From Alphaproteobacteria bacterium (lineage in GTDB: Bacteria; Pseudomonadota; Alphaproteobacteria; UBA828), in the NCBI GenBank assembly GCA_963422645.2, contig CAXXVO010000014.1:192001-256000 (forward strand): 64,000 bases of DNA. The letters are read 5' to 3'. Shown here piece by piece: positions 16,660-60,167 of the stretch. The stretch's first letter is position 1. Each line of letters opens with the position of its first letter. A model generated the notes under the pieces. The model was not told the origin of the DNA, did not search any database, and worked only from the letters and a program-made list of their open reading frames with translations. Position numbers and translations under genes: made by a program.

Positions 16660-16880
16660 AACGGGACAGGCGCCGCCCCTTAGCTGGGGGTGCCATCAGC
16701 CTCAAGAACGAAGTGGGCGGAAGCGTCTCAATCTTGCCCTGCGCTCCGTCGCAACCTCAGACCGTGTTCGCCCTATAATTCCGCACCTTGCGGAAATCAG
16801 TGACTCGGAAGGGCGCCGTTGAATTGCGCGCGGCTGACGGTGACACGTGACCCAAGAGTGAGGTGAGAGGCACTTAACAC

Positions 16881-16902
16881 CCCGGACCATGGTGCGGTGC
16901 AC
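16881..16902 (+). promoter_or_regulatory. Conserved quasi-palindromic left-end motif CCCGGACCATGGTGCGGTGCAC (possible late-promoter or activator site)
   Basis: Exact 22-bp inverted copy at 60122-60143; lies ~30 bp upstream of an ATG in both places. Confidence 0.55.
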
Positions 16903-17823
16903 AGGGCGGCCGGCGTGGGGCAATGTCCGCGCCATGAACGCTCTCAACGCTCCCCCGCCTTCCCACCACACCCGTCGAGGCCGCCCGTGAGCGCGCTCGA
17001 CGGGTGGATCGACATCTGCCGCGCTGGAAACTGGCACGATATGGCCGGGCGCGACGTGCGCCTCGATGAAGACCGGCTGGACCGTATCATCGCAGCGCAG
17101 TCCGCAGCCGACCCCGCGCCGGTCGTGGTTGGTCACCCTGAGGAGAACGCGCCGGCGTATGGCTGGGTCGACAGCCTGCGCCGCGTCGGCGACCGTCTGC
17201 AGGCGAAGCTGCGCGACATCGCGCCGGCCTTCCGCGAGGCGGTCGAGGACGGCCGCTACGCTGGCCGCTCTATCGCCCTCCAGGGCGACACCCTGCGCCA
17301 TCTCGGATTTCTTGGCGGCCGCGCACCGGCGGTGCCGGGCCTCGCTCCGACCTGCTTCGCATCCGCGCCGGAGTCGGTGATCGCCTTCGCCGACAGCACC
17401 GCCGAGGCCCCGCAGATCTCATCCGACGCACAGCCCGACTCTCTCCGCGCCCTGGAGCCGAGAGGGGACGAAGACGGCAACAGCCTCGTCCCCCTCCGTG
17501 CCCCCCAGGGCCGGGGAGAGGCCGAAGAGGACGGCTGCCAAGCTACCCATGATGTGGCGGGCAAGGAGAGCCAGGCTGCGGAGCAGCCTGGAGCGCGCGA
17601 CCGAGCGCCGCGCCGAATGGCGCGAAGCCAAGTGAGCGGAGCGAACGCCCGGCGCTTGAGGGAAATGAACGATCAAGAAACGTAACTACCCAGGTACCCC
17701 AATCCTGAGTTGAGGACGGTGATTATGGCGGCGGCCGCGGCCTGGTTCTGCCACCGCGATTGGTTCTTGACCTCATAGAGTTGCGGGACTATGGACTGCT
17801 CTCTCGCGTGACGGGAGCGGTCC

Positions 17824-18489
17824 ATGGGGTATTTCGGCTCGAAGGCGACAGCAGGTCTGTGCCAAGCGCTGATTGCGCTGATGCCGCCGCACTCCGTCTA
17901 CATCGAAAGCCACCTTGGGGGCGGGGCGCTGATGAAGCGCAAGCCGCCGGCCGTGCGTTCGATCGGCATCGACCGCGATGCGCAGGCGCTCGAGGCCTTC
18001 GTCTGCGACTACCCGGTCGATCTGGTTCACGGCTGTGCCCATGACTTCCTGGCCTCGTTCCCGTTCCTGGGCCCGGAGCTGGTTTACAGCGATCCGCCCT
18101 ATCTGCACGCGACCCGCCGCTCGGCGCAGCGCTACCGCTTCGAGTACGAGGAGGCCGGCCACGTCGCGCTTCTCGCGCTGCTCAAGGCTCTGCCCTGCCA
18201 GGTCATGATCTCGGGCCATCCGTCGGCGCTCTATGACGAGGTGCTGGCGGGATGGCGCCGGCTGGCGCTGCAGGTCACGACCCAGGGTCTGGTGCGAACC
18301 GAGGTCGTCTGGTTCAACTACGCCCCCGACCGGATGCATTGGGCCAGCCACGCAGGCCGGAACTTCACCGACCGCCAGCGCATCAAGCGCAAGGCAGCCA
18401 ACTGGGGCCGGCGCTACCAGGCCTTGCCGCCGGGCGAACGCCTCGCCGTGCTCGCCGCCATGATGGCCGTCGAGGCCGAAGACACGTGA
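17824..18489 (+). CDS. DNA N6-adenine methyltransferase (D12/Dam-like alpha class)
   Basis: YFGSK (motif X), ESHLGGG (motif I), YSDPPY (motif IV). Confidence 0.85.
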   Translation: MGYFGSKATAGLCQALIALMPPHSVYIESHLGGGALMKRKPPAVRSIGIDRDAQALEAFVCDYPVDLVHGCAHDFLASFPFLGPELVYSDPPYLHATRRSAQRYRFEYEEAGHVALLALLKALPCQVMISGHPSALYDEVLAGWRRLALQVTTQGLVRTEVVWFNYAPDRMHWASHAGRNFTDRQRIKRKAANWGRRYQALPPGERLAVLAAMMAVEAEDT

Positions 18490-20024
18490 CGGTGTCGCAC
18501 TGGCACGAAGACCTCGCCGCCCGTAACGAGGCCTTCTGCTGCCTGAAGGAGCTTCTCGAGCCATCATCCCTCGCAACCACTGTCGTCGTTGCCGTCCGGG
18601 AATGGGGGCAGGGGCTGCTGCGATCAGCCACCGCGCTCGCCCGGGAAAATGCCGCACTCGAGCAGGAGAACGCGGCCCTGCGCGAGCGCATCGCCGAACT
18701 CGAGCGCAGCGCGGCCCTCAACAGCACCACAAGCAGCAAGCCCCCCGCCAGCGACGGGCTCAAGAAGAAAAGCGGAGCCCAGAGGCGCACCCAAAGCCAG
18801 CGCGGAAAGTCCGGCGGGCCCAGTGGCGGCCAGCCCGGCCACAAGGGAACCACCCTCGCGCGGAGCGACAGCCCGGACCGTGTCGTCGATCACCACCCCT
18901 CCACCTGTTCCGGCTGTGGCGTCGAGCTCTCGGACGCCGACCGGCAAGGCGCGCCCGCCTGTCGGCAGGTCTTCGACGTACCCGAGCCGCAGCCTCTCGA
19001 GGTCACCGAACACCGCGCCCATCGCTGCCTCTGCGGCGCATGCGGCACGCTGACACGAGCCGCCTTCCCGCCGGGCGTCACCGCCCCGGTCCAGTACGGC
19101 CCTCGCATCACCGCTTGGGTGAGTTACCTGCTGTACGCCCAGTTCGTGCCCGAGAAGCGTCTGGCCGAACTCATGAGCGACATCTTCGCGGTGTCCATCT
19201 CCACTGCCACGATCGCCGCCATGGGCCGGCGCACAGCGCAGCGCTTCGAGGGCTTCCTCGACCATGTCGCCGATCTGATCCGCACGCAGGCGCCGGTCAA
19301 GCACCTCGACGAGACCGGCCTGCGTATCGCCGCCCGTACCCGCTGGCTCCATGTGCTGTGCACCCCGTTGCTCACCGTCCTGCGCATCGGCGAGGGACGC
19401 GGCGATGTCGAAAAGAACCTGAAAGGCATCCTCGTCCACGACGACTTCGCCCCCTACTTCACCATCAAGGGCGTCCGCCACGGCGCCTGCAACGCACATC
19501 ACCTGCGCGAACTCCAGGCCCTGATCGACATCGAGAAGGAGGAATGGGCGGCGAGCATGCACCGCCTGCTTCAGCGCGCGCGCAGGGCCGCCCGCTTCGC
19601 CCGTGAGAAAGACCGTCAAGTCCCCGCCTCCCTGGTGGCCCGCATCTCAAGGGCATGGGACCGTATCCTCGAAGAAGCCATCGCCTTCCATGAGGCCCAA
19701 CCGCCGCTCCAGATCGCAAAGCGAGGGCGAAAGAAACGCCGCATCGGCCACAACCTCGCGCGCCGCCTTCAAAAGCATAAGGAGGGCTGCCTGCGCTTCC
19801 TCACCGACCTGCGCACGCCGTTCACGAATAACGAGGCGGAGCGTGACATCCGTATGAACAAAGTGCATGAGAAGATCTCAGGCGGCTTCCGCTCCCTGCA
19901 AGGCGCCTGCAACTTCGCCGGAATGCGCAGCGTCATCGTCACCGCTCGAAAGCAAGGCTGGAACATCCTGCAAATCCTGGCGCACCCGGAACCGATGCAG
20001 CTGATCCCTATACTGCGCTCCTGA
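18486..20024 (+). CDS. IS66 family transposase (TnpC-type, intact)
   Basis: SSKPPASDG, CxxC zinc finger, HLDETG, VHDD, CNAHHLREL, TNNEAERDIR; GTGA overlap with the MTase stop. Confidence 0.93.
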   Translation: MTVSHWHEDLAARNEAFCCLKELLEPSSLATTVVVAVREWGQGLLRSATALARENAALEQENAALRERIAELERSAALNSTTSSKPPASDGLKKKSGAQRRTQSQRGKSGGPSGGQPGHKGTTLARSDSPDRVVDHHPSTCSGCGVELSDADRQGAPACRQVFDVPEPQPLEVTEHRAHRCLCGACGTLTRAAFPPGVTAPVQYGPRITAWVSYLLYAQFVPEKRLAELMSDIFAVSISTATIAAMGRRTAQRFEGFLDHVADLIRTQAPVKHLDETGLRIAARTRWLHVLCTPLLTVLRIGEGRGDVEKNLKGILVHDDFAPYFTIKGVRHGACNAHHLRELQALIDIEKEEWAASMHRLLQRARRAARFAREKDRQVPASLVARISRAWDRILEEAIAFHEAQPPLQIAKRGRKKRRIGHNLARRLQKHKEGCLRFLTDLRTPFTNNEAERDIRMNKVHEKISGGFRSLQGACNFAGMRSVIVTARKQGWNILQILAHPEPMQLIPILRS

Positions 20025-20707
20025 ACTTCTCCGGCTCATCCTGAGTATCGCTGTCCTCTCATCTTGTTCGCGACGCGGCGTTCATCATCCTCTCGCGCTC
20101 AAGAGAGTAGGCACCCCCGCGGCGTGGGGGCGTTGACGCAAAAGGAACTGGCTTGTTCCATAAGAGAGAGGGGGTACCTGGGCAGTTACCAAGAAACAGC
20201 GTTGGCGGAGCGGGAGGCGGTCCTGCTCGCCCGCGAGGCGGCGGCGACGGCCGACGACAGGCGCCGGGCGGCCGAGACGGCCATCGCGACCCATGTCGAA
20301 GCGGGTCGCGTCCTGCCCGGGGAGCGGGCGGCGCTGGTTGCGCTGCTCGCCGCGCTCGGCGAGGGCCAAGACAACGGCGACGAGGGCGCTGCAGGCGGGC
20401 ACGCCACCATCGCGTTTGCGTCGGCCTCGGGCGGCGAGGAGCGAATGCGGCCCGCCGCCATTCTGGAAAGATTCATCGAGGGCCTGCCCAGGCGCGTGGA
20501 TTACCGGACGCTCGCGGGCGGCCCGGTGCCGGGCGCGTCGGCGTTCGCGGGCAATGACGAGAATGCGGGCGAGGATAGCGAGCGAATCGCTGCCGAGGCC
20601 CGCGCGCTGATGACGGCGGAGGCGGAGAGGGGCGTGACCCTTACCCCCGCCGAGGCCGTCGACCGGGCGCGCGCCAAGCGCGGGCTCGGCATCGAAGGAG
20701 GAACGCA

Positions 20708-21064
20708 ATGAGTCATGTGTTGATGTGGCGGGCAGCGGACGCCGGCGGCGCCGTCTCCCCGCAGCGAATCGTCAAGTACGGCGACGCCGACGGCAAGGTG
20801 GTGCAATCCGCCGCGGCCGAGGACGCCCACATCGGGGTCTCCGGCCGGGCGTCCGCAGCCTTGGGCGGGCGTATTGAGATCGCCCGCACCGGCATCGCCG
20901 ACATCGAATACGGCGCCAACGTCGCGCGGGGCGCGCTGCTCACCGCCGATGGCGACGGCAAGGCGGTGACCGCTGCCGACGGCAACCGTGTCATCGGCAT
21001 CGCCGAGGTTTCCGGCGCCGCCGGCGACATCGGCCAAGTGCTGCTCGCCCCCGGCCTTCACTAA
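20708..21064 (+). CDS. Capsid cement/decoration protein (DUF2190-like)
   Basis: 118 aa Gly/Ala-rich, V.RG..LT.D.DG.AV and IG.A..SG..GD pattern; located between scaffold and MCP. Confidence 0.75.
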   Translation: MSHVLMWRAADAGGAVSPQRIVKYGDADGKVVQSAAAEDAHIGVSGRASAALGGRIEIARTGIADIEYGANVARGALLTADGDGKAVTAADGNRVIGIAEVSGAAGDIGQVLLAPGLH

Positions 21065-21074
21065 GGGAAACACC

Positions 21075-22049
21075 ATGGATCTGCACACCGATCAACTCGC
21101 TTCCGGCCCCTACGAGGTCCAGACCCGGCTCACGCAGATCGCGCAGGCGGCGGTGCCGTCCGGCCTGATCGCCGACGATGTCTGCCCGCGCGTCCGCACC
21201 GGCTTCAAGTTCACCTACACCACGCTTGCCGAGGAGGACCTGCTCACCATTCCGGACGTGCGGGCTTCCCGCGCCGCGCGCCTCAATCAGGTCGAGTTCG
21301 GCGCGACGGACACCACCGCGAGCGTGGTCGATTACGGCCTCGAGGACCCGGTTCCCTCCCGGGATATCGAAGAAGCCCGGGCCCAGGAGGTCGCCTACGA
21401 CCCGCTGGAACAGGCCGCGATTTCCACGGCCGAGCTGGTGAAGCTCGCCCGCGAGCGGCGCGTGGCCGACCTGGTGACCACCGCGTCCAACTATGCCGCC
21501 AGCCACTCCACCACGCTCAACGGCAACGCGCAGTGGAGCCACGCCAGCTCCAATCCGCGCAAGGCGATTCTGGAGGCCCTCGACGTGCCGCTGGTCCGCC
21601 CCAACACGCTGGTGTTCGGGCAGAAGGTGTGGACCGCGCTGCGTCAGTACCCGAAGATCGTCGAAGCGGTGACCGCCACCGGCGCCGGCGACCAGGCCTC
21701 CGGCATCGTGGTGAAGGAGGCCGTGGCCGAGCTCTTCGAGGTCGACCGCGTGCTCGTCGGCATGGCCTGGTACCAGAGCGCCAAGCGCGGCCAGGAGGAC
21801 AGCTTCGCCCGCCTCTGGGGCAAGCACGCCTGTGCAATCCACGTGCGCCGCGACATGGCGTCGCCCCGCGACCGCATGCCGAAATTCTGCTGGACCGCCG
21901 ATGCTCTCGGCGGGCTGCAAGTCGGCACCTATGAAGAGCCGGCGCGCGGCGTCAATCGGGGCTCGATCGTCGTCAAGGTCAGCGAGTGCGTCAAAGAACT
22001 CGTGGCCTACAACCGCGCCGGCTACCTCTGGCGCAGCGCGGTGGCCTGA
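21075..22049 (+). CDS. Phage major capsid protein (HK97 fold, Mu-like/gpE-like family)
   Basis: LTQIAQA..LIADDVCPRV, RERRVA, QWS..SNP..I, RPNTLVFG..VW..L..P.I; position after the decoration gene. Confidence 0.82.
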   Translation: MDLHTDQLASGPYEVQTRLTQIAQAAVPSGLIADDVCPRVRTGFKFTYTTLAEEDLLTIPDVRASRAARLNQVEFGATDTTASVVDYGLEDPVPSRDIEEARAQEVAYDPLEQAAISTAELVKLARERRVADLVTTASNYAASHSTTLNGNAQWSHASSNPRKAILEALDVPLVRPNTLVFGQKVWTALRQYPKIVEAVTATGAGDQASGIVVKEAVAELFEVDRVLVGMAWYQSAKRGQEDSFARLWGKHACAIHVRRDMASPRDRMPKFCWTADALGGLQVGTYEEPARGVNRGSIVVKVSECVKELVAYNRAGYLWRSAVA

Positions 22050-22052: not shown

Positions 22053-23222
22053 ATGGCGATACTCTCCTCCGCACGCCTTTCTACCGCGCGCGCGGTAGCG
22101 CGCGACCCGGCTCGACCGCCCGATCACCTGTGCGGGCTCGGCTACTCGCCGGCGGATCGGCACCAGAGCGCGGCCGAGGGCGAGGTCTGCCGGCACGCCG
22201 AGCGCCTGCTGAACATGGTCCACGCCTATTGCAAGATTCGCGATTCGTGGACCGGGTGGCTGCGCGGCGACGCCATGAGCCGCACCCTCTACGAGCGGAT
22301 CGTGCCCGAGATGCGTGCGCTCCGCGACGCCGAGCGGCGCATCGTGGAGACGCCGAGCGTGACCCTCCTTGCAGTGCTCGACTATGCCGCCCGCGCACGC
22401 AAGGCGGTGCCGGCCTACACGCTCCGCAAGACCATCGACTATCCGCAGCCGCCTGTCCCGGATGCGGTGCGGAAAGCCTGCGAGCGGATGAGCGCGGACG
22501 CCGAGCAGGCCGCGCTTGCCGCCCGCCAGGTGAGTGCCCGCGCCTATGCAGCCCGAATGACGCAGGCGATCGAGCGCGAGCGGGCGGAGGAGGCGCGCCG
22601 TCAGCAAGCGATGGCCGACGCCGGCGTGTCTGAGTCGCCAGAGGATTCCAAACGAGCGCAATCCGCACTGGAGGCGCGGATCGCGGTCTATGAAGGCGAG
22701 CGGCAACGCGCCCTCGCGGATGCCGGGCTCGGCTCGGATGGCGAGGCTGTGGACAAGGAGGCCGCGGCAACGGAGTCGCCGGTGCCGGAGGCGGGCTCGA
22801 CCGTCACCTGGCGGGTCGTCTCGCGCGGCTGGCGCAAGACCGTGCTCGAGCCGACTCCGGAGACCGCGCCGGCGTTCGCGCGCCGGCTGGTCCTGATCGA
22901 TCGCGGCGCGCGCGGCGGCACGCTGCGTGCGTTCGGCGAGCCCGATCTCGACGGGCGGCGTGAGACCATCAACGGCGTCCCCGTCCGCTTCGCTCACCGG
23001 GCCTCCCTCGCCGCGCGCCTTCGGCGCGACCGTGATCGCTTCAAGGTCTCACTCACTCCCACCCAAGTCCGGGAGTTGCGGGGTCACGCGCGTCGTCGAC
23101 GTGGCCTTCGCCGCCCGCCGGACGCGCGTCGGCCGGGGCGTCATGGTCGAGCTGGAGGCGACGCTCACCGTCGCCGGCGACTGGCGCGGCGCCACGCTCC
23201 GCGCCGGCCCGAGCTTCGATGA
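22053..23222 (+). CDS. Hypothetical protein with a coiled-coil middle; probably truncated or fused near 23085
   Basis: Long ORF right after the MCP; composition becomes shadow-like after ..TQVRELRG. Confidence 0.5.
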   Translation: MAILSSARLSTARAVARDPARPPDHLCGLGYSPADRHQSAAEGEVCRHAERLLNMVHAYCKIRDSWTGWLRGDAMSRTLYERIVPEMRALRDAERRIVETPSVTLLAVLDYAARARKAVPAYTLRKTIDYPQPPVPDAVRKACERMSADAEQAALAARQVSARAYAARMTQAIERERAEEARRQQAMADAGVSESPEDSKRAQSALEARIAVYEGERQRALADAGLGSDGEAVDKEAAATESPVPEAGSTVTWRVVSRGWRKTVLEPTPETAPAFARRLVLIDRGARGGTLRAFGEPDLDGRRETINGVPVRFAHRASLAARLRRDRDRFKVSLTPTQVRELRGHARRRRGLRRPPDARRPGRHGRAGGDAHRRRRLARRHAPRRPELR

Positions 23223-25281
23223 CCTATCCGTGGTCGCGCGCCTCGTCGACGGCGCCACCGTGGCCCGCTGGCTGGTGCCGCCCGACACCGGCCAGGCGGT
23301 CGAGATCGTGCCCGGCACCGAGGCCGCGCCCGCCGGCCCGCGCTTCCGCACCACCTGGATGCTGGACGCCGGCCCCGCGCCGGACCCGCCCACCGATTTT
23401 GCGGTGCAAGAGGCGGCGGACGGCACCCGCGTCTATAGCTGGCCCCCGCCCGAGGCGCCGGACCTCGAAGGCGTGGTTATCCGCTACGCCGCCGCCGCCG
23501 GCACCGCGTGGGCCGCCATGACGCCGCTGCACGCGGGCTTCCTCACCGCCTCGCCTCACGAGACCCTTGAGCCGCCCGCCGGAACCTGGACTTTCGCCGC
23601 GCGCGCGGTCTCGACCTCGGGCGCGGAATCGGCCTCCGCCACGGTGCGCGTCACCCTCGGCGGCCAGCGCGTCGGCGGCCAGAGCTGGCACGTCGGCTCG
23701 GGTCCGCCCGATGCGGCGCTCGGCGACGACGGCGACCTCTATCTCAACACCGACGATTCCACGATCTGGCGCAAGGCCGGCGGCGCCTGGTCGCAGATCG
23801 CCGACCTCGCGGGCGCCGACGGCTCGCTCTGGTACACCGGCGCAGGGCTGCCGTCCACGGTCATCGGCGAGGACGGCGACTGGTACTTCCGCACCGCCAA
23901 CGCGGGCATCTATCGCAAGGTCGGCGGCTCCTGGGTATTCCAGCTCGATATCGACGGCGCCGACGGCGCCACCTGGCATTCCGGCGTGGGCGTTCCGGGC
24001 CCGATGCTCGGCCGGGTCGGCGACTGGTACTTCCGCACCGACAACGGCTTCGTCTACGAGAAAACCGGGGCGGCGGTCTGGACCTTCCGCCGCGATATCA
24101 CCGGGCCGCAGGGCATCGCCGGCGCCACCTGGCACTCGGGCCCGCGCGACCCGAGCACGGTGATCGGCAGCGACGGCGACTTCTACCTGCGCACCGCCAA
24201 CTCGACCGTCTGGCAGAAGGCCGGCGGCACCTGGTCGCAGATCGCCGACCTCGCGGGCGCCGACGGTGCGCGCTGGTTCACCGGCGCAGGCCTGCCCTCG
24301 ACGGTCATCGGCGCCGACGGCGACTGGTACTTCCGCACCTCCAACGCCGGCATCTATCGCAAGGTCGGCGGCTCCTGGGTATTCCAGCTCGATATCGACG
24401 GCGCGGACGGCGCGCTCTGGCACGGCGGCACCGGGACGCCCTCCACGGCCATCGGCCGGGTCGGCGACTGGTACTTCCGCACCGACAACGGCTTCGTCTA
24501 CGAGAAGACCGCCGCTGCGGTCTGGACCTTCCGCCGCGATCTCACCGGGCCGCAGGGCACGCCAGGCACCGAGGGCCCGGCCGCGAGCCGGGGGCCCAAC
24601 GTCTACCACTACCAGATATCGCTCGCCGACTACGCCCTGCTCCAGGCCGGGCCGGCGGCGCTGCCGGCCTCGCTCGTCGCCATCGCCAACAGCGCCACCC
24701 TCGGCGAAAACGTGCACGGCGACTGGATCAGGTTCTGGCGACCGGGCTTCAACTCGTGGTGGACCTGGGTCGGCCCGTCCTCGGAGTGGCGCATGGCCGA
24801 GGAGTGGATTGGCGCCGCCGACATCGCGGCGGTGCGCATCCAGGCGATCACCGGCGACTTTCGCGACATCAATGTCACCGGCACGCTCTCGGCCGAGCAC
24901 ATCGACGCCGACGTGCGCAACGTCAAGGTGCTCTGGAGCCATAGCGTCGGCGTGAGCGTCGAGACCGCAGGCTACACCGCCACGCTTTCCGACCCGCCGA
25001 CCGACTACGACTATCTGGAGTTCGTGCTGGAGGAGCTCAACCCGCAAATCTCGCCCTTCGGCCTCGCCTCGATCCCGGTGCCGCACATCCACGTGGGCGC
25101 CACCTTCGACAACGACTCCGCCATCGCCTACGCCATCGCGCGCGGTGCAGGCGAGGCGGACGGCCCGACCCTGCTGATCCGCCGGCCCTCGTCCACCAGC
25201 CGCGATCTGGCCCTCCAGGCGACCACGGCCTCGACCGGCGGCGCCCTGCACGGCGTCATCGGCGTCAGGGAGGTCGATTGA
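23083..25281 (+). CDS. Phage tail tip/fibre protein C-terminal part (FN3-like domain plus six GxGxP..GD.Y repeats), probably 5'-truncated
   Basis: PDPPTDF...YSW...IRY...WTFAARAVSTSG FN3-like pattern, then repeats; first ATG at 23142. Confidence 0.7.
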   Translation, partial: VTRVVDVAFAARRTRVGRGVMVELEATLTVAGDWRGATLRAGPSFDDLSVVARLVDGATVARWLVPPDTGQAVEIVPGTEAAPAGPRFRTTWMLDAGPAPDPPTDFAVQEAADGTRVYSWPPPEAPDLEGVVIRYAAAAGTAWAAMTPLHAGFLTASPHETLEPPAGTWTFAARAVSTSGAESASATVRVTLGGQRVGGQSWHVGSGPPDAALGDDGDLYLNTDDSTIWRKAGGAWSQIADLAGADGSLWYTGAGLPSTVIGEDGDWYFRTANAGIYRKVGGSWVFQLDIDGADGATWHSGVGVPGPMLGRVGDWYFRTDNGFVYEKTGAAVWTFRRDITGPQGIAGATWHSGPRDPSTVIGSDGDFYLRTANSTVWQKAGGTWSQIADLAGADGARWFTGAGLPSTVIGADGDWYFRTSNAGIYRKVGGSWVFQLDIDGADGALWHGGTGTPSTAIGRVGDWYFRTDNGFVYEKTAAAVWTFRRDLTGPQGTPGTEGPAASRGPNVYHYQISLADYALLQAGPAALPASLVAIANSATLGENVHGDWIRFWRPGFNSWWTWVGPSSEWRMAEEWIGAADIAAVRIQAITGDFRDINVTGTLSAEHIDADVRNVKVLWSHSVGVSVETAGYTATLSDPPTDYDYLEFVLEELNPQISPFGLASIPVPHIHVGATFDNDSAIAYAIARGAGEADGPTLLIRRPSSTSRDLALQATTASTGGALHGVIGVREVD
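23680..24570 (+). repeat. Intragenic tandem duplication with 444-bp period (ABC-ABC of ~48/48/52-aa units)
   Basis: TGGTACTTCCGCACC(G/T)CCAACGC at 23881 and 24325; near-identical blocks. Confidence 0.9.
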
Positions 25282-25978
25282 TGGACACCAGAGCACTCCA
25301 GGCGGCGCTCGCGCACTTGGGGCTCGCGCTGCCTTACGGCCTGTTGCCGGGCAGCTATCCCGGCGGCGTGGTCGAGGTCGCGGCCGATGCGGAGACCTGG
25401 GCGGCCTACCGGTGGAACCCGCCCGAGTACATGCGCGCCGGCGCGCTCTACCGGATCGGCCCCTGGCGCGCGCTTCGCCTGGTGGCGCACACGCGCAATC
25501 CGGGCGCCCTTTACAACGAGTTCGCCTATCTCGACGCGGGCTTCGCGGCCGGGCCGCCGGCGCCGCCGGCCCTGCCTGCGCCCACCGGGGCGGATGCGCT
25601 GCCTGGCGGCTGGAGCGCCTTGCCTGAGGCCTTCCCGGCCTGGTCGATCGCGCGCCGCGTCCACCGCGTGCCGGCCGCGCCGCCCGCCTCGGCGCGCTCC
25701 CGGCCGCGCTGATCCGGCGCGCCAACGCGCAAGCGCGCGCCCGTATCGCCACGGCCTACGTCGGCACGCCAAACCGGATCGAGGAGATCACCTGGCGCTT
25801 GAACGGCCGCGCGACGGCGGCGCAGGATGCGGAGCGGGCGCGACTCGTGGCGGCCTGCCATGCGCTGGAGCGGCGCATCGGCAGAGCGGCGACGATCGAG
25901 GCGCTGGAGGCGATCGACGTGAGCAGCGATGCGGCATGGACGGCGGACGATGGAGGGAACGATGGCAACGAAAGGTAA
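25278..25978 (+). pseudogene. Degraded tail-fibre-associated/assembly protein
   Basis: N-terminal ORF 25278-25712, then another frame ending ..RRIGRAATIEALEAIDVSSDAAW..*, resembling fibre chaperone C-termini. Confidence 0.4.
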
Positions 25979-26198
25979 GGCGGCGAGCCTCGCCGATCAG
26001 CTTGAGGGCGCTCGGGTCTATCTTGAGCAGGCGGCCGCCCGCGTGGCCGGGCTGGAGGCGGCGGACGCACCGGGCCGCGGCGATCTGACCATGATCGAGG
26101 TCGCCCGCGACGAGGCGCGCGAGGCCGCAAAGCTCATGCAGCGGGTCCACGGGCGCGCCACCCGAGCGGCCGCGAAGGCAGCGCAAGCGGGCGCGTGA
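25962..26198 (+). CDS. Small helical hypothetical protein (78 aa)
   Basis: RBS GGAGGG, MATKGKAASLADQLE... Confidence 0.55.
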   Translation: MATKGKAASLADQLEGARVYLEQAAARVAGLEAADAPGRGDLTMIEVARDEAREAAKLMQRVHGRATRAAAKAAQAGA

Positions 26199-26209
26199 GG
26201 GTGGCGTGA

Positions 26210-26360
26210 TTTCGCGCCCGCGACCTGGTTTGCCGCGCGCACGACCCTTCGGGCGTGCGCGACTCAGGCGCGGGCGACACGGGCGTACGCGACATCCCAC
26301 TTATCCCACTTGAATCCCACTTATCCCGGGAATCCCACCAAAATATGTGTGGCCTTCGCA
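26210..26360 (+). repeat. Right-end motif: C(TTCG)G-capped hairpin plus five ATCCC(ACTT) tandem units
   Basis: Hairpin 26232-26267 is 34/36 identical to the reverse complement of 59974-60009; repeats at 26294-26340. Confidence 0.85.
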
Positions 26361-29005: not shown

Positions 29006-29006
29006 G

Positions 29007-34492: not shown

Positions 34493-34734
34493 CTGCGTCC
34501 GCATGCGGAGCGGTCGGGCTCGCCGAGCCGCCAGCCGCCAGTGCCGGCTGGGCTGGCCGCCTCCGACCCCAGAGCCTCCGCGGCAAGCGCACACTGCGCC
34601 AAAGACATCCTTGAAAAGTTGTAACTGCCCAGGTCGTCTGATTTGTCATTTTGGGCCAGTGGATTGAGGCGTTTCTCGTTCGGAGTTGGTGGAAAGGGCT
34701 TGACGGGAATTTCGGGAAATGACTCAACAACGAC

Positions 34735-36231
34735 ATGAGCAATCCCGAGTCGCCGCGCGGCCCTTCGACGGGAGCAGCGCCCGAAACGCCCGCGCAGAAG
34801 ATCGCCCGCCTGGAGGAGGAGAACGCCCGGCTTCGGGAGGAAAATGCCTGGCTTCGGCAGCAGAACGCGCGGCTGGAAGAGCAAGTCGCGCGTCTCGTCG
34901 AGCGCATCGAGGAGTTGGAGCGCCGTCTCGGCCTCAACAGCGGCAAGCCGCCTTCGAGCGATGGGCTGAGGAAGCCGAATTCGAAGCGGCGAACCCGAAG
35001 CCTGCGCGGCAAATCGGGCCGCAAGCCCGGTGGCCAGCCCGGCCACAAGGGCAAGACGCTGCGCCGCGCCGATCACCCGGATCGGGTGAAGGATCACGTC
35101 CCGGCTTCCTGCAAGGGATGCGGTTCGCCGCTTTCGGACGCGGCCAGGGCGGGAACGCCCGTCGCCCGCCAGGTGTTCGATCTGCCCGAGCCGAGCCCCC
35201 TGGAGGTGACCGAGCACCGGGCGCATGCCAAGTGCTGCGGGCATTGCGGGACGATGACCCGGGCGGCGTTCCCCGACGGGGTGTCGGCGCCGGTGCAGTA
35301 CGGCCCGCGCATTGCCGGGGTGGCGGTCTACCTTCAGCACGCTCACTTCCTGCCGGAGGATCGGCTGTCGCAGGTGATGGCCGAGCTCTTCGGCGCGCCG
35401 GTGACGGCTGCGACGTTGGCGACGATGAGCGAGAGGGCGGCCGAGCGGCTGCGGGACGCGGCCTTGCACATACAGGACCTGGCGGCGGGCACGGCGCGGG
35501 TGAAACACATGGACGAGACCGGCTTGCGGATCGGCGGTCAGACGCAGTGGCTTCATGTGATCTGCACGCCGCTGCTGGCGGCGTACCGGGTCAGCGGCAA
35601 GCGCGGCGCCCTGCTCTCGGGTGTCTCCGGCATCGTCGTGCACGATCACTGGAAGCCGTACTTCGCGATGGAAGGGGTGGAGCACGGCCTGTGCAACGCC
35701 CATCACCTGCGGGAGTTGCAGGCGCTGGTGGACATCGAAGGGGAGGCTTGGGCCCGGCGGATGCAGCAGCTCCTGCGCCGAGCCAATCGCGCCGCCCGCA
35801 TCGCGCTGGACAAGGATATCGCCGTTCCGGCGAGGCTTGTGGCGCTGATCGAGCGCCGATACGACGAGATCATCGCCGATGCGCTGGCCTTTCACGAGAG
35901 CCAACCACCGTTCTCGCCTGGCAAGAGGAAGAAGCGCCGGAAGCGAAGGATCGGTCACAATCTGGCCTTGAGGCTGCGCGACCACAAATGCGCGGTGCTC
36001 CGGTTCCTGATCGACCTCGAGGTCGGGTTCACGAACAACGAGGCCGAGCGCGACCTTCGGATGATGAAGCTGCGCCAGAAGATCTCCGGGGGCTTCCGGT
36101 CCGCGCAGGGGGCCGAGAACTTCGCCATCCTGCGCAGCGTCATCACCACCGCCAGAAAGCAGGGCTGGAATATCATCGAAGCCCTGACCAGCCCATCGGA
36201 TCGGCTCATCGCCACCGTCAAGTGCGCGTAA
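34735..36231 (+). CDS. IS66 family transposase (498 aa, no TnpA/TnpB)
   Basis: KPPSSDG, HMDETG, VHDH, CNAHHLREL, TNNEAERDLR. Confidence 0.95.
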   Translation: MSNPESPRGPSTGAAPETPAQKIARLEEENARLREENAWLRQQNARLEEQVARLVERIEELERRLGLNSGKPPSSDGLRKPNSKRRTRSLRGKSGRKPGGQPGHKGKTLRRADHPDRVKDHVPASCKGCGSPLSDAARAGTPVARQVFDLPEPSPLEVTEHRAHAKCCGHCGTMTRAAFPDGVSAPVQYGPRIAGVAVYLQHAHFLPEDRLSQVMAELFGAPVTAATLATMSERAAERLRDAALHIQDLAAGTARVKHMDETGLRIGGQTQWLHVICTPLLAAYRVSGKRGALLSGVSGIVVHDHWKPYFAMEGVEHGLCNAHHLRELQALVDIEGEAWARRMQQLLRRANRAARIALDKDIAVPARLVALIERRYDEIIADALAFHESQPPFSPGKRKKRRKRRIGHNLALRLRDHKCAVLRFLIDLEVGFTNNEAERDLRMMKLRQKISGGFRSAQGAENFAILRSVITTARKQGWNIIEALTSPSDRLIATVKCA

Positions 36232-36286
36232 GCTCACCTGGCACGGGTTCTCCAACAGCGGAGCCATTCTCATAAACGATCATGGT

Positions 36287-36440
36287 CGACGCCGTGCTGG
36301 ACCACCCCATAGAATGAAAATCGGTGCCCGTCGCGCGGGCGGACTTCGGGCCACATCGGGGTAGCTTACCGGTCGCAGTCCGCAAGAGGGGCATCGTGAG
36401 CTGTGAAACCCGGCGACCCCAGAGGAGCACACGGGCGTCG
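36287..36440 (+). ncRNA. Candidate structured RNA/DNA in the IS66-A 3' tail
   Basis: Nested complementary segments and a C(TTCG)G loop; second copy at 43344-43497. Confidence 0.3.
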
Positions 36441-36666
36441 CGTGGGTAGCGTTGTGCCGAATCCCAGAGAATTTTCACAGCAAGAACCTGGGCGGTTACG
36501 AAAAGTTCCAGGCAGCTTGGTACTTGGCAGAAAAATGCGCGTCGAATACCTTGCCCAATGAACAGCCCCGATGTTTCCCGTCTCAGTTGTCCTGAGCCAG
36601 GACAGGCGGCGGACAAAGCGCGATCCAAGGGCTGAGATCGATGCCCGCACCTTTGAGGTCGGTCCC

Positions 36667-39150: not shown

Positions 39151-42100
39151 GTAACTGCCCAGGTCGTCTGATTTGTCATTTTGGGCCAGTGGATTGAGGC
39201 GTTTCTCGTTCGGAGTTGGTGGAAAGGGCTTGACGGGAATTTCGGGAAATGACTCAACAACGACATGAGCAATCCCGAGTCGCCGCGCGGCCCTTCGACG
39301 GGAGCAGCGCCCGAAACGCCCGCGCAGAAGATCGCCCGCCTGGAGGAGGAGAACGCCCGGCTTCGGGAGGAAAATGCCTGGCTTCGGCAGCAGAACGCGC
39401 GGCTGGAAGAGCAAGTCGCGCGTCTCGTCGAGCGCATCGAGGAGTTGGAGCGCCGTCTCGGCCTCAACAGCGGCAACAGCGGCAAGCCGCCTTCGAGCGA
39501 TGGGCTGAGGAAGCCGAATTCGAAGCGGCGAACCCGAAGCCTGCGCGGCAAATCGGGCCGCAAGCCCGGTGGCCAGCCCGGCCACAAGGGCAAGACGCTG
39601 CGCCGCGCCGATCACCCGGATCGGGTGAAGGATCACGTCCCGGCTTCCTGCAAGGGATGCGGTTCGCCGCTTTCGGACGCGGCCAGGGCGGGAACGCCCG
39701 TCGCCCGCCAGGTGTTCGATCTGCCCGAGCCGAGCCCCCTGGAGGTGACCGAGCACCGGGCGCATGCCAAGTGCTGCGGGCATTGCGGGACGGTGACCCG
39801 GGCGGCGTTCCCCGACGGGGTGTCGGCGCCGGTGCAGTACGGCCCGCGCATTGCCGGGGTGGCGGTCTACCTTCAGCACGCTCACTTCCTGCCGGAGGAT
39901 CGGCTGTCGCAGGTGATGGCCGAGCTCTTCGGCGCGCCGGTGACGGCTGCGACGTTGGCGACGATGAGCGAGAGGGCGGCCGAGCGGCTTGCGGGACGCG
40001 GCCTTGCACATACAGGACCTGGCGGCGGGCACGGCGCGGGTGAAACACATGGACGAGACCGGCTTGCGGATCGGCGGTCAGACGCAGTGGCTTCATGTGA
40101 TCTGCACGCCGCTGCTGGCGGCGTACCGGGTCAGCGGCAAGCGCGGCGCCCTGCTCTCGGGTGTCTCCGGCATCGTCGTGCACGATCACTGGAAGCCGTA
40201 CTTCGCGATGGAAGGGGTGGAGCACGGCCTGTGCAACGCCCATCACCTGCGGGAGTTGCAGGCGCTGGTGGACATCGAAGGGGAGGCTTGGGCCCGGCGG
40301 ATGCAGCAGCTCCTGCGCCGAGCCAATCGCGCCGCCCGCATCGCGCTGGACAAGGATATCGCCGTTCCGGCGAGGCTTGTGGCGCTGATCGAGCGCCGAT
40401 ACGACGAGATCATCGCCGATGCGCTGGCCTTTCACGAGAGCCAACCACCGTTCTCGCCTGGCAAGAGGAAGAAGCGCCGGAAGCGAAGGATCGGTCACAA
40501 TCTGGCCTTGAGGCTGCGCGACCACAAATGCGCGGTGCTCCGGTTCCTGATCGACCTCGAGGTCGGGTTCACGAACAACGAGGCCGAGCGCGACCTTCGG
40601 ATGATGAAGCTGCGCCAGAAGATCTCCGGGGGCTTCCGGTCCGCGCAGGGGGCCGAGAACTTCGCCATCCTGCGCAGCGTCATCACCACCGCCAGAAAGC
40701 AGGGCTGGAATATCATCGAAGCCCTGACCAGCCCATCGGATCGGCTCATCGCCACCGTCAAGTGCGCGTAAGCTCAGACTTCCTGACCTCTGCTGATTTT
40801 AGGTGACACGAGCCGCGCGGATTCCGAGGCCCCGTCGATGTCGTAGACTATGCGCAGACGGGTGCCGGGGAAGACCGTTTCGGTGGCGTTCAGGTCGCTC
40901 AGAACCGCATCGATCCAACGGTCGCAGGCGTCGTTTGCGAGGCCAAGAATGTGGACCCGCAGGAGGCCATTGCCAGGATCCGGCAGGATGTCGGCATCGG
41001 CGGTGAGCAGCGCTTGAAGCAGTTTCCGGGGATGGGGCTTGTGGCCCTGCGCCTGCATGACGGGAAGCATCATGCGGGTTTCGGCGCGGTAGGCGATCAT
41101 CCGGATGACGTCGAGGAGGAGGCGCTCGCGCGCGGGCAAGGCATCGAGCTGCTCGGCTTCGTCGAGGTCGCCGGCCCGGCAGTGCTTGGGCGTCTCCCTG
41201 CGGCTGGCCCTGACGATGTCGCGGACATCCTGGAGGTCCCTGACTTCCCTCCTGAGTTCCGCCGTCGGCTGCTTCTTCCGGGCCGTGTCGGCGATGCGGT
41301 TGCGCAGGCGGCCAAGCTGGCGGTCGAGGCGATGGATTGCCTTGTCATAGGCCCGCCGCAGCGGGTTGACGACCATGGCGGCGGGATCGAGAGGCTCGAG
41401 CTCGTGGGTCGGCAGGGCGTCGAGATTGAACTCGTCACGCATGTACTTGAAGAAGTTCTCCTGCGACCAGCGCGAGAACATGGCGCCCGCAACCTCAGCC
41501 ATCGGCTTGTGCGGATCGGTGGTGATCAGCGGCACCTGACGGCCGTTGTCGAGCAGGCGGCGGATCTGGCGCACCCTGAAGCCGTTCGGCAACGTCACCG
41601 GCTTCTCAGCCAGCCGCATGGTGGCGCTGCCGTCCGCCGCCGGTCCGTGAATGGGAACGGTCATCGCGCCGAAGTCCTCGGCCGGCCAGTCCTCGCCCCT
41701 GAAGTTCTTGTGCCAGGTCAGGCAGGCGACGCCGCGCCTCGCCAGCCGGCGGAACAGATCCGGGCTCCAGCCCTCGCGGTCGAAGACCAGGGTGAGCGCC
41801 GGCTGGCCGGGATGCTCGGCGGTCAGGTCCGGCGCCCCGGCGCCAACGATCCCAAGCTCCTGCAGCGCCGGCACCACGTCGGCTTCGATGGCCGCGACCA
41901 TCTTCGGGTCCAGCGGCTTGTGCAGACAGAGCAGCGGCTTGCCGCCCAGAGCGTTGATCCAGTAGCTGGCGCTCGCCGGCAGGCACAGCTTCTCGCGCGA
42001 GACGAAGTGCTTGGGCAAGCGCCCCTTGCGGCCGGAGTAGACCTTGACGTGCCCGTCGATGGCCAGCGTCGCCCAGAGCTCCGGCTCGTCGGCCTTGCCA

Positions 42101-43556
42101 GCGCCTGGCAAGGGCGAGCTGCCACGCCCGCACGCCGGCCTCGTCGTCGGCGATGAGAGCGATCTTGCGGCGCAGCGTCTTGACCTCGGGGCAGCGATCG
42201 AGGCCGAGAATGGCGCCCCATTCGCCCGGCGCCTGGTAGCGCAGGCTCTCGGGGTTGCGCACCCGCGCCAAGGTCATGAAGGCCAGGAAGAGCAGGATCG
42301 TAGGCAAGCCGTAATAGCCCTTCGGCAGCAATGGCAGGAGACCGGTCTCGGAGAGAAGACCTTCCTTCAGCAGGGCCGGCAGGGCGGCGAGCACGCCGCC
42401 GAAGCGGACACCGCGGGCGGCGGCGGCGAACTGCGGTTCGACCGGCCCCGCCTGTCCACAACTGGCCAGAACCCGAGCCGGAACATCGCAAGTCGCACGC
42501 CCCATCGGCGCCTGCCGGTCCCGCCGATCGCGCGCGCTGCGATCCGTTTGCGGCTGCGCTTCCAGCCCCGGCGCCGTCTCCGGCCCCGGGGCACCGGTAC
42601 TCTCTTCATCGACACGGCCTTCAGGAGCCGCACCCGCGTCAGGCGGCGCAGCCAGCGCTGAGCGTCCGGGCTCCCCATCCGCCTCCGTGTTGCCGATCAG
42701 TCCCTGACGGCGCCACTTGTTGACCGATGGCGCTGACACGCCGAGAACCCGGGCCGCCGCAGAGCCGCTCAGGCCCGATGCCAGCAACGCCGTCGCCTTC
42801 TCCGCCAACTCCGGAGTGAACACCGACGGCCCGCGACCGCGCCGGGGCTTCATGAACCCCGCTTCGCCCTCGGCCAGGTAGCGCCGTCGTGCGCGCTGCA
42901 CCGTCGCGCGCGAGACAGCGAAAGCGTCAGCCAGTTCCTGCGGCGAGACCGCGCTGATCGCCGCGAGGCGGCCGATCCGCAAGAGCATGGCCGTGCGGTC
43001 ATCGGCGGCGTGGCTGTCAAAGGGAATGAGGTTGGAAAAGTAGGTGAAGGTGTCGTCCGAGATCAGGACGGCGAAGCAGCTGTTGCCGATCGAGACCGCC
43101 TCTGGAGGGCACATTGGGAGGGTACTGGGCATGGTTGAGACCGTGCAATTGGTATCAAATTATAATATCAGACCTCGGGCGCGACACCCAGCGAAAAACC
43201 GCCTGAAACAACCGAAATGTATCAGAATTCAAGGGGTTCCCGGCACGCTGCCCAGAACAGCCAGCATCACGAGGTCAGGAAGTCTGAAGCTCACCTGGCA
43301 CGGGTTCTCCAACAGCGGAGCCATTCTCATAAACGATCATGGTCGACGCCGTGCTGGACCACCCCATAGAATGAAAATCGGTGCCCGTCGCGCGGGCGGA
43401 CTTCGGGCCACATCGGGGTAGCTTACCGGTCGCAGTCCGCAAGAGGGGCATCGTGAGCTGTGAAACCCGGCGACCCCAGAGGAGCACACGGGCGTCGCGT
43501 GGGTAGCGTTGTGCCGAATCCCAGAGAATTTTCACAGCAAGAACCTGGGCAGTTAC
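39151..43556 (+). mobile_element. IS66-A copy 3 with nested ISX (4406 bp)
   Basis: Both IRs present; 8-bp TSD AGAAAATC at 39143-39150 and 43557-43564; same frameshift as copy 1. Confidence 0.96.
40774..43287 (-). mobile_element. ISX copy 2 (2514 bp)
   Basis: Same TIR; AGC (or AAGCT) duplicated relative to the empty site in IS66-A copy 2. Confidence 0.92.
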
Positions 43557-43701
43557 AGAAAATCACGCCTGTTCACTTGCAGCATGGCTATTACCTCCTA
43601 ATCAGCTGTTGTCTCTTGGCTTGCCTTCGGTGCGCCCGCGCGCAGATCGGCTGAGCAGTTAGGGCATTCGACGATCCACGGAGACGAGCGCCGGGGCACT
43701 A

Positions 43702-55842: not shown

Positions 55843-55918
55843 GGGCGCACCGTGGTCGCGGTTCTCTCCGGCGGCAATGTGGATCCCGCCACCTTCCGGG
55901 CAGTTCTGAATCAGGGCG

Positions 55919-56782: not shown

Positions 56783-56862
56783 GTTCTCCCCCGCGGCCCG
56801 CCGCTAATGCGGCGCGCCCGCGCAGGCGCCGGCCGCGGGCCGGCTGCCGTGAGCGAAAAGAT

Positions 56863-57528: not shown

Positions 57529-57597
57529 GTCCCGATCCTCCTGGTCTTCAGGCCGCAACCGCGGCCATCGTCTCTCCGCCGCGCGCCGGCCCCCGGC

Positions 57598-59001: not shown

Positions 59002-59177
59002 CGCACTCTCCTCTCGCGCCGCGCGGCTTCCGGCATCCGTGGGCCAGAGCCTATCGCGGCGCGGGCGCGACGGCTAGCGGAAGCACGACGGATTTCGCTG
59101 CCCTCCGTGGCCCCTGCCGGGGCCATCCGGCATACTGCCGCCCTCACAGGGCAAGGGGGCCGGGGAGGCCGCAAGAG

Positions 59178-59801
59178 ATGCTGGTGGTGTGGGGGCGCAA
59201 GAACTCGATCAACGTGCAGAAGGTGATGTGGACCGTGGCCGAGCTGGGTCTGGCCCACGAGCGGAAGGACGTGGGCGGCCCCTTCGGCGGGCTCGACACA
59301 GCCGACTACGGCGCGCTCAACCCCAACCGGCGCATCCCGACCATCGTGGACGAGGACGGCACCACCGTCTGGGAATCGCACAGTTGCGTGCGCTACCTCG
59401 CCGCCCGCTATGGCGCAGGCCAGCTCTGGCCCGAGGACCCCTCGGCCCGCGCGCTCGCCGACCTCTGGCTCGACTGGATGCAGACCACGCTCCTGCCGGG
59501 CCTCGCGCCGGTCTTCCTCGGCCTCATCCGCACGCCGGCCGAAGAGCGCAACACGGCGCGGATCGAGCGCTGCATCCGCGCCATGGGCGAGACCTGGCGC
59601 ATTCTCGATGCCCACATGGAGGGGCGCAGCTTCGTCGCTGCGGACTCGCTCACCATGGGCGACATCGCGGCCGGCGCCGCCTGCTACCGCTACCACGCGC
59701 TGGATATCGAGCGCCCCGCGCTACCCAACATCGCACTCTGGTACGAGCGGCTGCAGGAGCGCGCACACTTCCGCACCCACGTGATGATCCCGCTGAGCTA
59801 G
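59178..59801 (+). CDS. Glutathione S-transferase (GstB-like)
   Basis: WGRKNSINVQKV, LNPNRRIP, WES. Confidence 0.9.
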   Translation: MLVVWGRKNSINVQKVMWTVAELGLAHERKDVGGPFGGLDTADYGALNPNRRIPTIVDEDGTTVWESHSCVRYLAARYGAGQLWPEDPSARALADLWLDWMQTTLLPGLAPVFLGLIRTPAEERNTARIERCIRAMGETWRILDAHMEGRSFVAADSLTMGDIAAGAACYRYHALDIERPALPNIALWYERLQERAHFRTHVMIPLS

Positions 59802-59849
59802 GCCCGCCTCGCCACGCTTGCAGCCTGCGCCGCGTCCCTCGCGACGCGA

Positions 59850-60167
59850 GCGAAGGATTGATGTTTTTTGCGGAATTTGGCGGCTTATTCCGGCTCAAAG
59901 TGGTCCAAGGTGGCTCAAGGTGGCTCAAGGTGGGCGGCTCAAAGCGGCTCATCATGGTTCAAGGTGGCGCATTCTGGGTCGCGCACGCCCGAAGCGTCGT
60001 GCGCGCGGCTCAAGGGGTTCCGCGCGCGAAAGCAGGATCCTGCATGCCCACCTGTCTTGCTTGATATGGCCCGCTCGCTTTCGCACCGCATGGTGCGACC
60101 CTGACGCAGGAAGCGCGCGGCGTGCACCGCACCATGGTCCGGGTCCCGCGTGCGGCACAGGGTCACG
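59850..60167 (-). mobile_element. Miniature non-coding element made of the two ends of the capsid element
   Basis: Contains inverted copies of 16846-16853, 16881-16902, 26210-26217, 26232-26267 and CCTTCGC, plus ~9 (T/C)GGCTCAAGG-type 10-mers at 59881-59968. Confidence 0.65.

Follow-up and report, generated by a model that had tools for sequence, protein, structure and literature searches.

A Mu gp27-like cassette family and a chromosomally fixed Mu-derived head locus share a promoter-like element in an uncultured alphaproteobacterial genus

A 64,000-nt stretch of an alphaproteobacterial genome (assembly GCA_963422645.2, contig CAXXVO010000014.1, positions 192,001-256,000; hereafter the window) contains a phage capsid (head) locus and, 34 kb away, a compact gene-less unit of 320 bp that carries motifs like those at both ends of the capsid locus. 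In a preliminary description the two were proposed as the loaded and the empty form of a new mobile or satellite element. The question raised by this locus is whether the shared motifs are the ends of such an element or have another role. The compact unit is a deleted copy of something else, a cassette with a Mu gp27-like gene. We regard it as probable, though well short of certain, that this cassette family and a separate, fixed, Mu-derived head locus share the left motif as an activator-type promoter, in a regulon like that of a gene transfer agent (GTA).

The motifs named at the two sites were all present by direct reading. A 22-mer, CCCGGACCATGGTGCGGTGCAC, was found at 16881-16902 (plus strand) and 60122-60143 (minus strand), followed after 25 nt by CGCGCCATG at the head locus and after 24 nt by CGCACCATG at the compact unit. 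At the other end, TTTCGCGC with a C(TTCG)G hairpin was found at 26210-26271 (plus) and 59970-60034 (minus), and a repeat search matched the hairpin blocks (26207-26267 and 59974-60034) at 82% over 61 nt. Tandem Repeats Finder (TRF) reported 3.6 copies of ATCCCACTT at 26294-26327 and 4.2 copies of a 10-nt unit at 59892-59933. The match exceeded chance: with two or fewer mismatches, a 20-mer core had 32 sites in the window's own genome (5.9 Mb; G000, the compared genomes bearing other G-numbers), and the reversed pattern, scanned as a control, had 0 in 31 genomes (congeners and 12 genomes from other genera). The 22-mer had 5 exact copies in the own genome and 34 with three or fewer mismatches. 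Two of the shorter words lost their significance. CGTGACCC (16846-16853) lies outside the block conserved across species and copies and is probably a chance match, because conservation begins approximately 5 nt before the 22-mer; CCTTCGC was not conserved in other copies or species and was also treated as chance. The 22-nt offset of TTTCGCGC is present at both sites, but it does not indicate a special pairing, since the hairpin is a unit resembling repetitive extragenic palindromic (REP) sequences and such units often stand in tandem.

Nor were the motifs confined to two loci. Profiles run with nhmmer over the own genome (merged for the last two) gave 42 matches to the left motif (module A), 46 to the tandem array of the right motif (module T) and 17 to the hairpin (module H), which excludes the possibility, allowed for in the preliminary description, that only two copies exist. 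The co-occurrence of left and right motifs in fixed orientation held more widely: 29 of the 42 A copies had a same-strand T within 220 nt. The content between A and T was indeed variable, being nothing, a gp27-like gene, or the head locus.

Module A consists of a dyad, approximately 13 variable nt and then GCGyCAnnATCGCGCCATG. The ATG stood at one fixed column in 30 of 41 copies, with the centre of the 16-bp dyad 43.5 nt before the A of the ATG. When that A was counted as +1, an A was found at −11 in 37 of 41 copies, a T at −7 in 36 and a C at −12 in 36; the −10-like CAnnAT lies 6 nt before the ATG, and there is no −35 element. The copy at the head locus (16878..16938, plus strand; nhmmer match C15:208878-208938) has the 16-bp imperfect dyad CCGGACCATGGTGCGG at 16882-16897, CAatGT as its −10-like element and the ATG at 16935-16937, and its dyad-to-ATG spacing is 1 nt over the family norm. 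In the compact unit (60065..60144, minus strand; nhmmer, E = 1e-15) the match includes A and approximately 44 nt that resemble the 5′ coding end of the gp27-like cassettes. The 20-mer was present in 11-75 copies in 15 of 18 congeners and absent from 12 genomes of other genera; an exact-pattern scan of IMG/VR returned 0 matches.

At the head locus, 11 of 11 relatives had A directly 5′ of the protease gene, and the sequence further upstream had diverged: the cross-species footprint starts approximately 5 nt before the dyad, and in G009 approximately 1 kb is inserted immediately 5′ of A. The main lineage has a short open reading frame (ORF; approximately 18 codons in the own genome) between the ATG of A and the GTG start of the protease gene, and this tract differs in length between species. 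In a second head-locus copy of G002, the protease gene starts at the ATG of A itself, and the dyad forms a perfect palindrome, GGGACCATGGTCCC; that A lies at approximately 7805-7860, in module orientation, of L033 (G002:C1:180000-199900). Upstream of A in the window is a 97-aa ORF (16366-16659), kept in G004, G005, G009, G011, G013, G017, and G032 and not found upstream of A in G002, G003, and G008. It matched no Pfam or PHROGs family and may be regarded as a candidate regulator.

Module A also precedes a family of cassettes. A full-length cassette (approximately 0.8 kb) comprises A, a gene for a Mu gp27-like, small-terminase-like protein with a helix-turn-helix (HTH) that starts at the ATG of A, and then T. 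The gene matched PF11985 (Phage_Mu_Gp27) and also phrog_426, annotated as terminase small subunit (E down to 2.8e-31). In the own genome, A was directly 5′ of five of the eight PF11985 matches, with the ATG of A as start codon. These five were considered as possible leaders of terminase/portal operons, which was rejected, all of them being solitary. Within the genus set of 21 genomes, 18 had 1-15 copies of PF11985 genes; the three with none (G012, G015, and G016) are the same three that lack the 20-mer and the capsid gene. Among the 20 best-scoring full-length PF11985 matches, picked by score from nine congeners, A was found upstream in 20 and T approximately 650-700 nt downstream in 19. From these distributions the cassette family appears to be restricted to this genus. 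T overlaps the 3′ coding end of the gp27-like gene, and the tail encoded there was predicted to be disordered by AlphaFold. The model (mean pLDDT 64; 70-92 over residues 30-170) has an N-terminal HTH followed by long helices; Foldseek searches of it against the PDB gave nothing at E ≤ 0.001 (best E, 0.85).

The gene-less compact units can be derived from these cassettes. The own genome has 29 such units of 105-342 bp, which are the pairs of A and same-strand T mentioned, located in 3′ intergenic regions: 17 between convergent genes, 10 between tandem genes and 0 between divergent genes, as far as crude ORF calls define gene orientation. A DNA profile built from 19 of the 20 sampled cassettes matched the compact units in two parts, positions 5 to 97-170 (A with 40-110 nt of 5′ coding sequence) and positions approximately 670-780 (T). 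Unit C19:122012-121721 joins profile position 152 directly to position 568. The compact unit of the window matched positions 5-104 (E = 1.5e-11 in a 1.4-kb search space), whereas the A of the head module matched positions 5-63 only. The profile match therefore identifies the 320-bp unit (59867-60144), by its sequence, as an internally deleted cassette of A, gp27-like gene and T, and not as a miniature made of the fused ends of the capsid module. Most other copies of the family are likewise best described as internally deleted, gene-less remnants consisting of A, optionally H, and T.

The right motif follows the same family. Two types of T array were distinguished, type 1 with ATCCCACTT units and type 2 with GAGCCACYTT units, both ending in ..CCGG(C)GAAT.. 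and an AT tract; 13 of the 46 merged arrays had no A within 12 kb upstream. The array at the end of the head module (26294..26349, plus strand; nhmmer T profile and TRF) is of type 1, with ATCCCACTT repeats followed by CCGGGAATCCCACC and the AT tract, and it matched the 3′ end of the cassette profile (positions 674-744, E = 1.3e-4). That of the compact unit (59867..59985, minus strand; nhmmer T2 profile and TRF) is of type 2, with GAGCCACCTT repeats followed by GCCGGAATAAGCCGCC and an A tract. H, composed of tandem REP-like GC-rich hairpin units, lies at 26207..26275 on the plus strand at the head module (repeat search and nhmmer H profile) and at 59970..60034 on the minus strand in the compact unit (repeat search and profile match); across the own genome its copies were found 5′ of A, between A and T, or after T. 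The right flank of the head locus was retrieved for G005, G006, G008, G009, G011, and G032, the sequence retrieved for G002, G003, G004, G013, and G017 not extending so far. As a general end of the capsid module the right motif failed: H and T followed the last module gene only in G000, G005, and G009, a subclade of three species with one fibre allele in common, and were absent in G006, G008, G011, and G032. In G006 the last module gene ends 13 nt from the stop codon of a RidA-like gene.

Some further features of the T arrays were noted. Type-1 units alternate between 9-nt and 11-nt spacing, giving a 20-nt super-period (for example, at 26294-26327). Read as TTATCCCAC, the type-1 unit is one inserted C away from the Escherichia coli DnaA-box consensus, TTATCCACA. 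A DnaA-box array, an intrinsic terminator, an iteron origin and an integrase site with arm and core were weighed as possible roles of T. The inverted repeat of an IS66-family insertion sequence (IS), GTAACTGCCCAGG, stood directly after the AT tract of six T arrays of the own genome (C5:664716, C7:114083, C8:652712, C9:511437, C10:282149, and C15:343725), which we attribute to a preference that this IS seems to have for the AT tract as a target.

The head locus itself behaved differently from the dispersed copies. It begins after A with the N-terminal part of a head maturation protease/scaffold gene resembling Mu gene I (16987..17681, plus strand, as are all genes of the locus; phrog_976, E = 1.6e-36, profile positions 33-241). 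The gene is split by a 2,508-bp IS66-family insertion (17682..20189, plus strand; PF03050 transposase, E = 6e-41) and resumes with its C-terminal part (20190..20711; phrog_976 positions 255-388; 91% identity to residues 232-403 in G005). A head cement/scaffold-like gene (20708..21064; PF09956 and phrog_673, E = 2.6e-22), a major capsid gene of the Mu-like lineage (21075..22049; phrog_1005, E = 1.5e-67) and a gene for a conserved protein of unknown function (22053..23089; tblastn, 85% identity to G005, in which it has 341 aa) follow. A fibre-like gene with 144-nt tandem repeats and then two or three small ORFs make up 23140..26198 (phrog_15437/phrog_4013), a variable 3′ part common only to the own genome, G005, and G009. 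The module proteins of the own genome and G005 were scanned against Pfam and PHROGs; the 341-aa protein and the last module ORFs matched no family, and no integrase, replication or transposase gene belonging to the module was found. The matches to PF11985, phrog_976, and phrog_1005 agree with the Mu-like ancestry that had been proposed.

The IS66-family insertion has inverted repeats GTAACTRCCCAGGTACCCC and an 8-bp target duplication, CAAGAAAC, at 17674-17681 and 20190-20197; it is absent from the protease genes of the relatives, which are contiguous and intact. Homology to the relatives stops at approximately 23089 and picks up 3-10 kb further on in their sequences, after genes for an adaptor, a neck protein, a tail tube, a chaperone, a 273-aa ORF resembling a tape measure protein (TMP; in G005) and minor tail proteins. 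Because the relatives have tail genes there, the own genome is taken to carry a deletion at approximately 23089. The head locus of the own genome is thus decaying.

Elsewhere in the genus the locus is conserved. The capsid protein was 90-97% identical in 16 of 20 congeners and single-copy in 15 of these 16; G002 has a second capsid copy, 80% identical, in the diverged second head locus. Outside the genus, capsid relatives reached at most 46% identity, and in IMG/VR one 5-kb fragment with the gene order of G005 reached 97%, the others at most 43%. The dN/dS ratio of the capsid gene was 0.076-0.162 in comparisons with 15 congeners (the truncated G004 gene was dropped). In all six relatives with a retrieved right flank, a RidA-like gene (PF01042) and the sequence beyond it adjoined the 3′ side of the module. 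The module was 28-46 kb from the GST-like gene that stands beside the compact unit of the window in G004, G005, G006, G008, G009, G011, and G032, with G013 as the exception to this spacing. On these comparisons the head locus is an old, chromosomally fixed, vertically inherited, Mu-derived remnant under purifying selection.

A second structural locus also carries A. A 412-aa portal gene (phrog_113, E = 2.8e-85), adjoined by a conserved 1150-aa gene, was found directly after A in six of six relatives examined; a 470-aa TerL gene lies just 5′ of this locus in G005 and G011, and in G005 it is preceded by a weak A match (E = 3e-3). In the own genome, contig C2 ends within the portal locus. Over the two loci, the relatives have genes for TerL, portal, protease, capsid, adaptor, neck, tail tube, chaperone, a short TMP-like protein and fibre.

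What, then, would the shared A do? Its fixed geometry with respect to the ATG resembles that of an activator-dependent promoter, in line with the role suggested for the left motif in the preliminary description. We suggest that A may be an activator-dependent promoter/operator giving a leaderless mRNA, and that through it the scattered structural genes would form a single regulon with the gp27-like cassettes, like that of a GTA-like domesticated prophage; any particle production would form part of the same proposal. The H and T of the head module are the 3′ module of the cassette family, present there perhaps as a solo remnant, perhaps as a 3′ element common to both. Vertical inheritance and purifying selection, which are expected of a GTA-like prophage, were both found for the capsid.

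Several results weigh against this regulon. The Mor/C activator that had been looked for was not found, no homologue of the family (PF08765) being detected in 21 genomes. A scan with the sigma-70 consensus recovered no promoter in A, and scans of three window regions for sigma-70 promoters and intrinsic terminators gave 0 sites. The spacing of −43.5 rests on an assumed transcription start at the ATG. The 29 gene-less units would be promoters with nothing to express, 17 of them facing a convergent gene. In three species the head-tail locus stands between an A and a T in cassette orientation, which a chance solo T explains only weakly (by a rough estimate, a few per cent per convergent intergenic region). 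The structural set is broken in the own genome by the split protease gene and the lost tail genes, in G004 by a deletion of the capsid N-terminus and in G008 by a truncation of TerL. The capsid dN/dS against the second G002 copy (L023) was 0.74, a value for which an ungapped misalignment is suspected, and the gp27-like genes showed relaxed constraint (median pairwise dN/dS, 0.48; range, 0.17-0.99; 153 pairs). Finally, the reading gives no account of how the cassettes multiply, TerS-like proteins not being known as mobility enzymes.

Could the cassettes instead serve DNA packaging? In this alternative, which we consider unlikely, each cassette is a packaging module in which the gp27-like protein is the small terminase and T a pac-like array; the cassettes, perhaps together with the remnants, would then mark approximately 40 chromosomal sites at which headful packaging is started by the conserved Mu-type head/terminase set or by an infecting phage, with site-directed transduction, GTA-like or lateral, as the result. 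The family assignments of the protein fit a small terminase, as would the HTH and long helices of its predicted structure. The location of T, which in 19 of 20 cassettes is within the gene's 3′ end or right at it, fits as well, as do its 9-10-nt periods (TRF), in helical phase beside the AT tract; several pac phages have their pac site within terS. The genus has conserved TerL, portal, protease, capsid and tail genes that have A in common, and the TMP-like ORF of G005 is short, at 273 aa. Against it, T in intact cassettes codes for the C-terminal tail that is predicted to be disordered, so that its repeats may be a by-product of coding. Moreover, the type-2 arrays had no full-length partner among the 19 cassettes, the Foldseek comparison with solved small terminases was not significant (phage G20C TerS, E = 1.8), and in G018 the 20-mer occurs 28 times although this type of capsid gene is lacking. 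We see only a slim chance for the extended versions, in which T and the cassettes are the dispersed pac modules of a Mu-derived, genus-wide GTA-like system, from which chromosomal DNA would be transferred beginning at set points, or in which the cassette is a new kind of selfish element that spreads by having itself encapsidated, with a terminase small subunit encoded in place of a transposase.

The original proposal, a mobile or satellite family (mini-Mu, MITE-like or phage satellite) with A and H-T as its cis-acting ends, the capsid module as its cargo-bearing and the 320-bp unit as its empty form, we now judge to be quite improbable. Pairs of A and T in fixed orientation do surround variable content (29 empty units, the gp27-like gene, and the head or head-tail locus in G000, G005, and G009), and the family is multi-copy, with copy numbers several-fold different between species and with lineage-specific presence: a unit at C3:130k was found only in G000 and G005, and at the site of the window's unit G018 has an 81-nt intergenic region without it. 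As in miniature inverted-repeat transposable elements (MITEs), multiple copies, a longer gene-bearing partner and internally deleted derivatives were all found. The head module, however, occupied one syntenic locus in every relative checked and, as noted, was single-copy in nearly all congeners that have it; the T at its end was missing in four of seven species, and A also heads the portal gene, with no T after it. A and T share no inverted similarity, A being a dyad with an ATG and T direct repeats with an AT tract, so there are no terminal inverted repeats; conservation begins with the dyad and stops after the AT tract. Neither module nor cassettes contain an integrase, replication or transposase gene of their own, PF11985/phrog_426 being the sole cassette ORF, and in place of the anticipated helper transposase the only transposase in the module is that of the unrelated IS66-family insertion.

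Target duplications and empty sites were tested at two sites, C3:130k and that of the window's own unit. At C3:130k, the one lineage-specific gain inspected, the other four species have a small gene of approximately 480 nt at the site, and no target duplication was found; at the second site G018 lacks 807 nt, more than the unit alone. Some units are old and stable, as they stand at orthologous sites in five of five relatives: at C18:256.6k, A was found in all five and T was detected only in G005 and G009, being longer in G009. G006, G011, and G014 have the window's unit in the orthologous position, as does G005, where the T part differs. Joints in public contigs that connect 16901/16902 with 26294/26295 were considered as traces of excision and rejected; their flanks are only 18-27 nt, which is the shared motif itself, and they were read as other compact units. 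The compact units thus undergo turnover, for which we found no signature of a known transposition mechanism, and a satellite or transposon that carries the capsid, at a locus syntenic in six of six relatives, under purifying selection and with no mobility genes of its own, is not supported.

It is very improbable that A acts as RNA through a hairpin of CCAUGGUGCG and CGCGCCAUGG (complementary if G-U pairs count) that sequesters the start codon and would govern translation or RNA stability, or that the units are plain REP-like or bacterial interspersed mosaic element (BIME)-like repeats unlinked to phage genes, as their 3′ intergenic location and clustering of H hairpins might suggest, because A is conserved precisely before phage structural genes in all species, RNAalifold gave −0.34 kcal/mol and no covariation for 30 A copies (the pairs being essentially invariant, with no compensatory changes), dyad variants were uncompensated in the partner segment, the dyad symmetry of the second G002 copy was kept by a two-sided change, which fits a dimeric DNA-binding protein, and no Rfam family reached its gathering score in the window (the compact-unit region had only a meaningless miRNA match, E = 8).

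Further repeated and phage-like features surround these loci. The IS66-family element has a DNA-methyltransferase-like passenger ORF (17824-18489; phrog_56, E = 2e-17) and reached a very high copy number in public contig sets that bear the same organism label (approximately 100 times the depth of its flanks); the raised depth over 17.5-20.4 kb in public DNA contigs reflects the multi-copy IS. At 23658-24570, within the fibre-like ORF, a 144-nt unit (48 aa, with a GDWYFRT motif) stands six times in tandem, arranged as a 444-nt higher-order duplication. Blocks repeated at 100% identity, with transposase-sized ORFs (for example, 513 and 508 aa), were found at 11792-16183, 34621-36504, and 39151-43561. 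The first of these has 255-nt perfectly complementary terminal arms, and most of it recurs 27,104 nt downstream; one of the blocks stops 110 nt short of the left flank that is conserved at the head locus. Close to this point, G005 has a different inserted pair of ORFs (509 and 261 aa), the larger without a PHROG match.

The own genome also has a different Mu-type TerL-portal pair, in several copies and fragments 95-100% identical to each other (C9:185004-188258, C8:86714-89416, C9:16448-18172, C15:383797-386635, and C10:133049-133708) and approximately 52% identical to the genus-conserved portal. The C9 copy examined had IS21-sized ORFs (508 and 242 aa) a few kilobases upstream and no adjoining capsid or tail genes. 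Two complete-looking Mu-like head regions of the same genome (on C8 and C16) had no A or T nearby.

In an uncultured genus, head, tail, portal and terminase genes of Mu type have thus been maintained by purifying selection as a divided set, with A before each piece. Should the proposed regulon be real, the set would count as a candidate gene transfer agent that descends from Mu and whose cis-regulatory code can be read, and as a natural case of a phage promoter and a packaging gene turning into a dispersed repeat. A limited search of the literature, covering some sources in excerpt, returned no published description of such a system, which is not proof of absence.

Compared with known systems, the compact units resemble MITEs and REP/BIME elements in being dozens of short, gene-less, internally deleted copies in 3′ intergenic regions, near GC-rich hairpins and with presence/absence differences between species. 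Unlike these, they have no terminal inverted repeats, no target duplication was seen, the left end is a promoter-like dyad, and the full-length unit encodes a small-terminase-like HTH protein rather than the transposase or REP-associated tyrosine transposase (RAYT) of MITE and REP parents. Phage satellites such as capsid-forming (cf-PICI) and SaPI-type phage-inducible chromosomal islands, P4 and the phage-inducible chromosomal island-like elements (PLEs) likewise have genes for capsid, protease and small-terminase-like proteins outside a complete phage. The locus described here differs from them in having no integrase, att sites, replication or regulatory module, in being syntenic and vertically inherited, and in having tail genes too in the relatives. 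Mini-Mu elements are comparable in the Mu-type ancestry of the neighbouring genes; here no Mu-type transposase lies beside the units, and T is not an inverted copy of A. The ends of Mu contain multiple 22-bp transposase sites. None were noted at A or T, at which no model search was aimed.

The Mu late promoters have a −10 element and no −35 element, and their activator C binds a 16-bp imperfect dyad centred at −43.5, according to PMC2582627; the same description is given for Mor at Pm in PMC4390567. Counted from the presumed start at the ATG, A would share the 16-bp dyad at −43.5, the −10-like element and the lack of a −35 with Mu Plys, PI, PP, and Pmom (activated by C) and Pm (activated by Mor). 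PI precedes gene I, and A precedes a gene-I-like protease gene and a gp27-like gene of Mu-type order. It differs from the Mu late promoters in its unrelated dyad sequence, in a transcript that would be leaderless, with a start placed by the ATG, and in its amplification to dozens of mostly gene-less copies.

The closest parallel to the proposed regulon is with GTAs, of which RcGTA has the activator GafA and BaGTA has several co-regulated loci (compare PMC6363796, PMC9638019, and 10.1101/2024.11.20.624540). The lineage is Mu-type here (phrog_976/1005/113 and PF11985), unlike the HK97-like RcGTA; unlike in GTAs, the set is broken in the own genome and multi-copy TerS-like cassettes accompany it. 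As in GTAs, structural genes, apparently without replication or lysogeny genes, are chromosomally fixed, genus-conserved and under purifying selection, and the set, known here from its genes, is split over at least two loci that would stand under one regulatory element.

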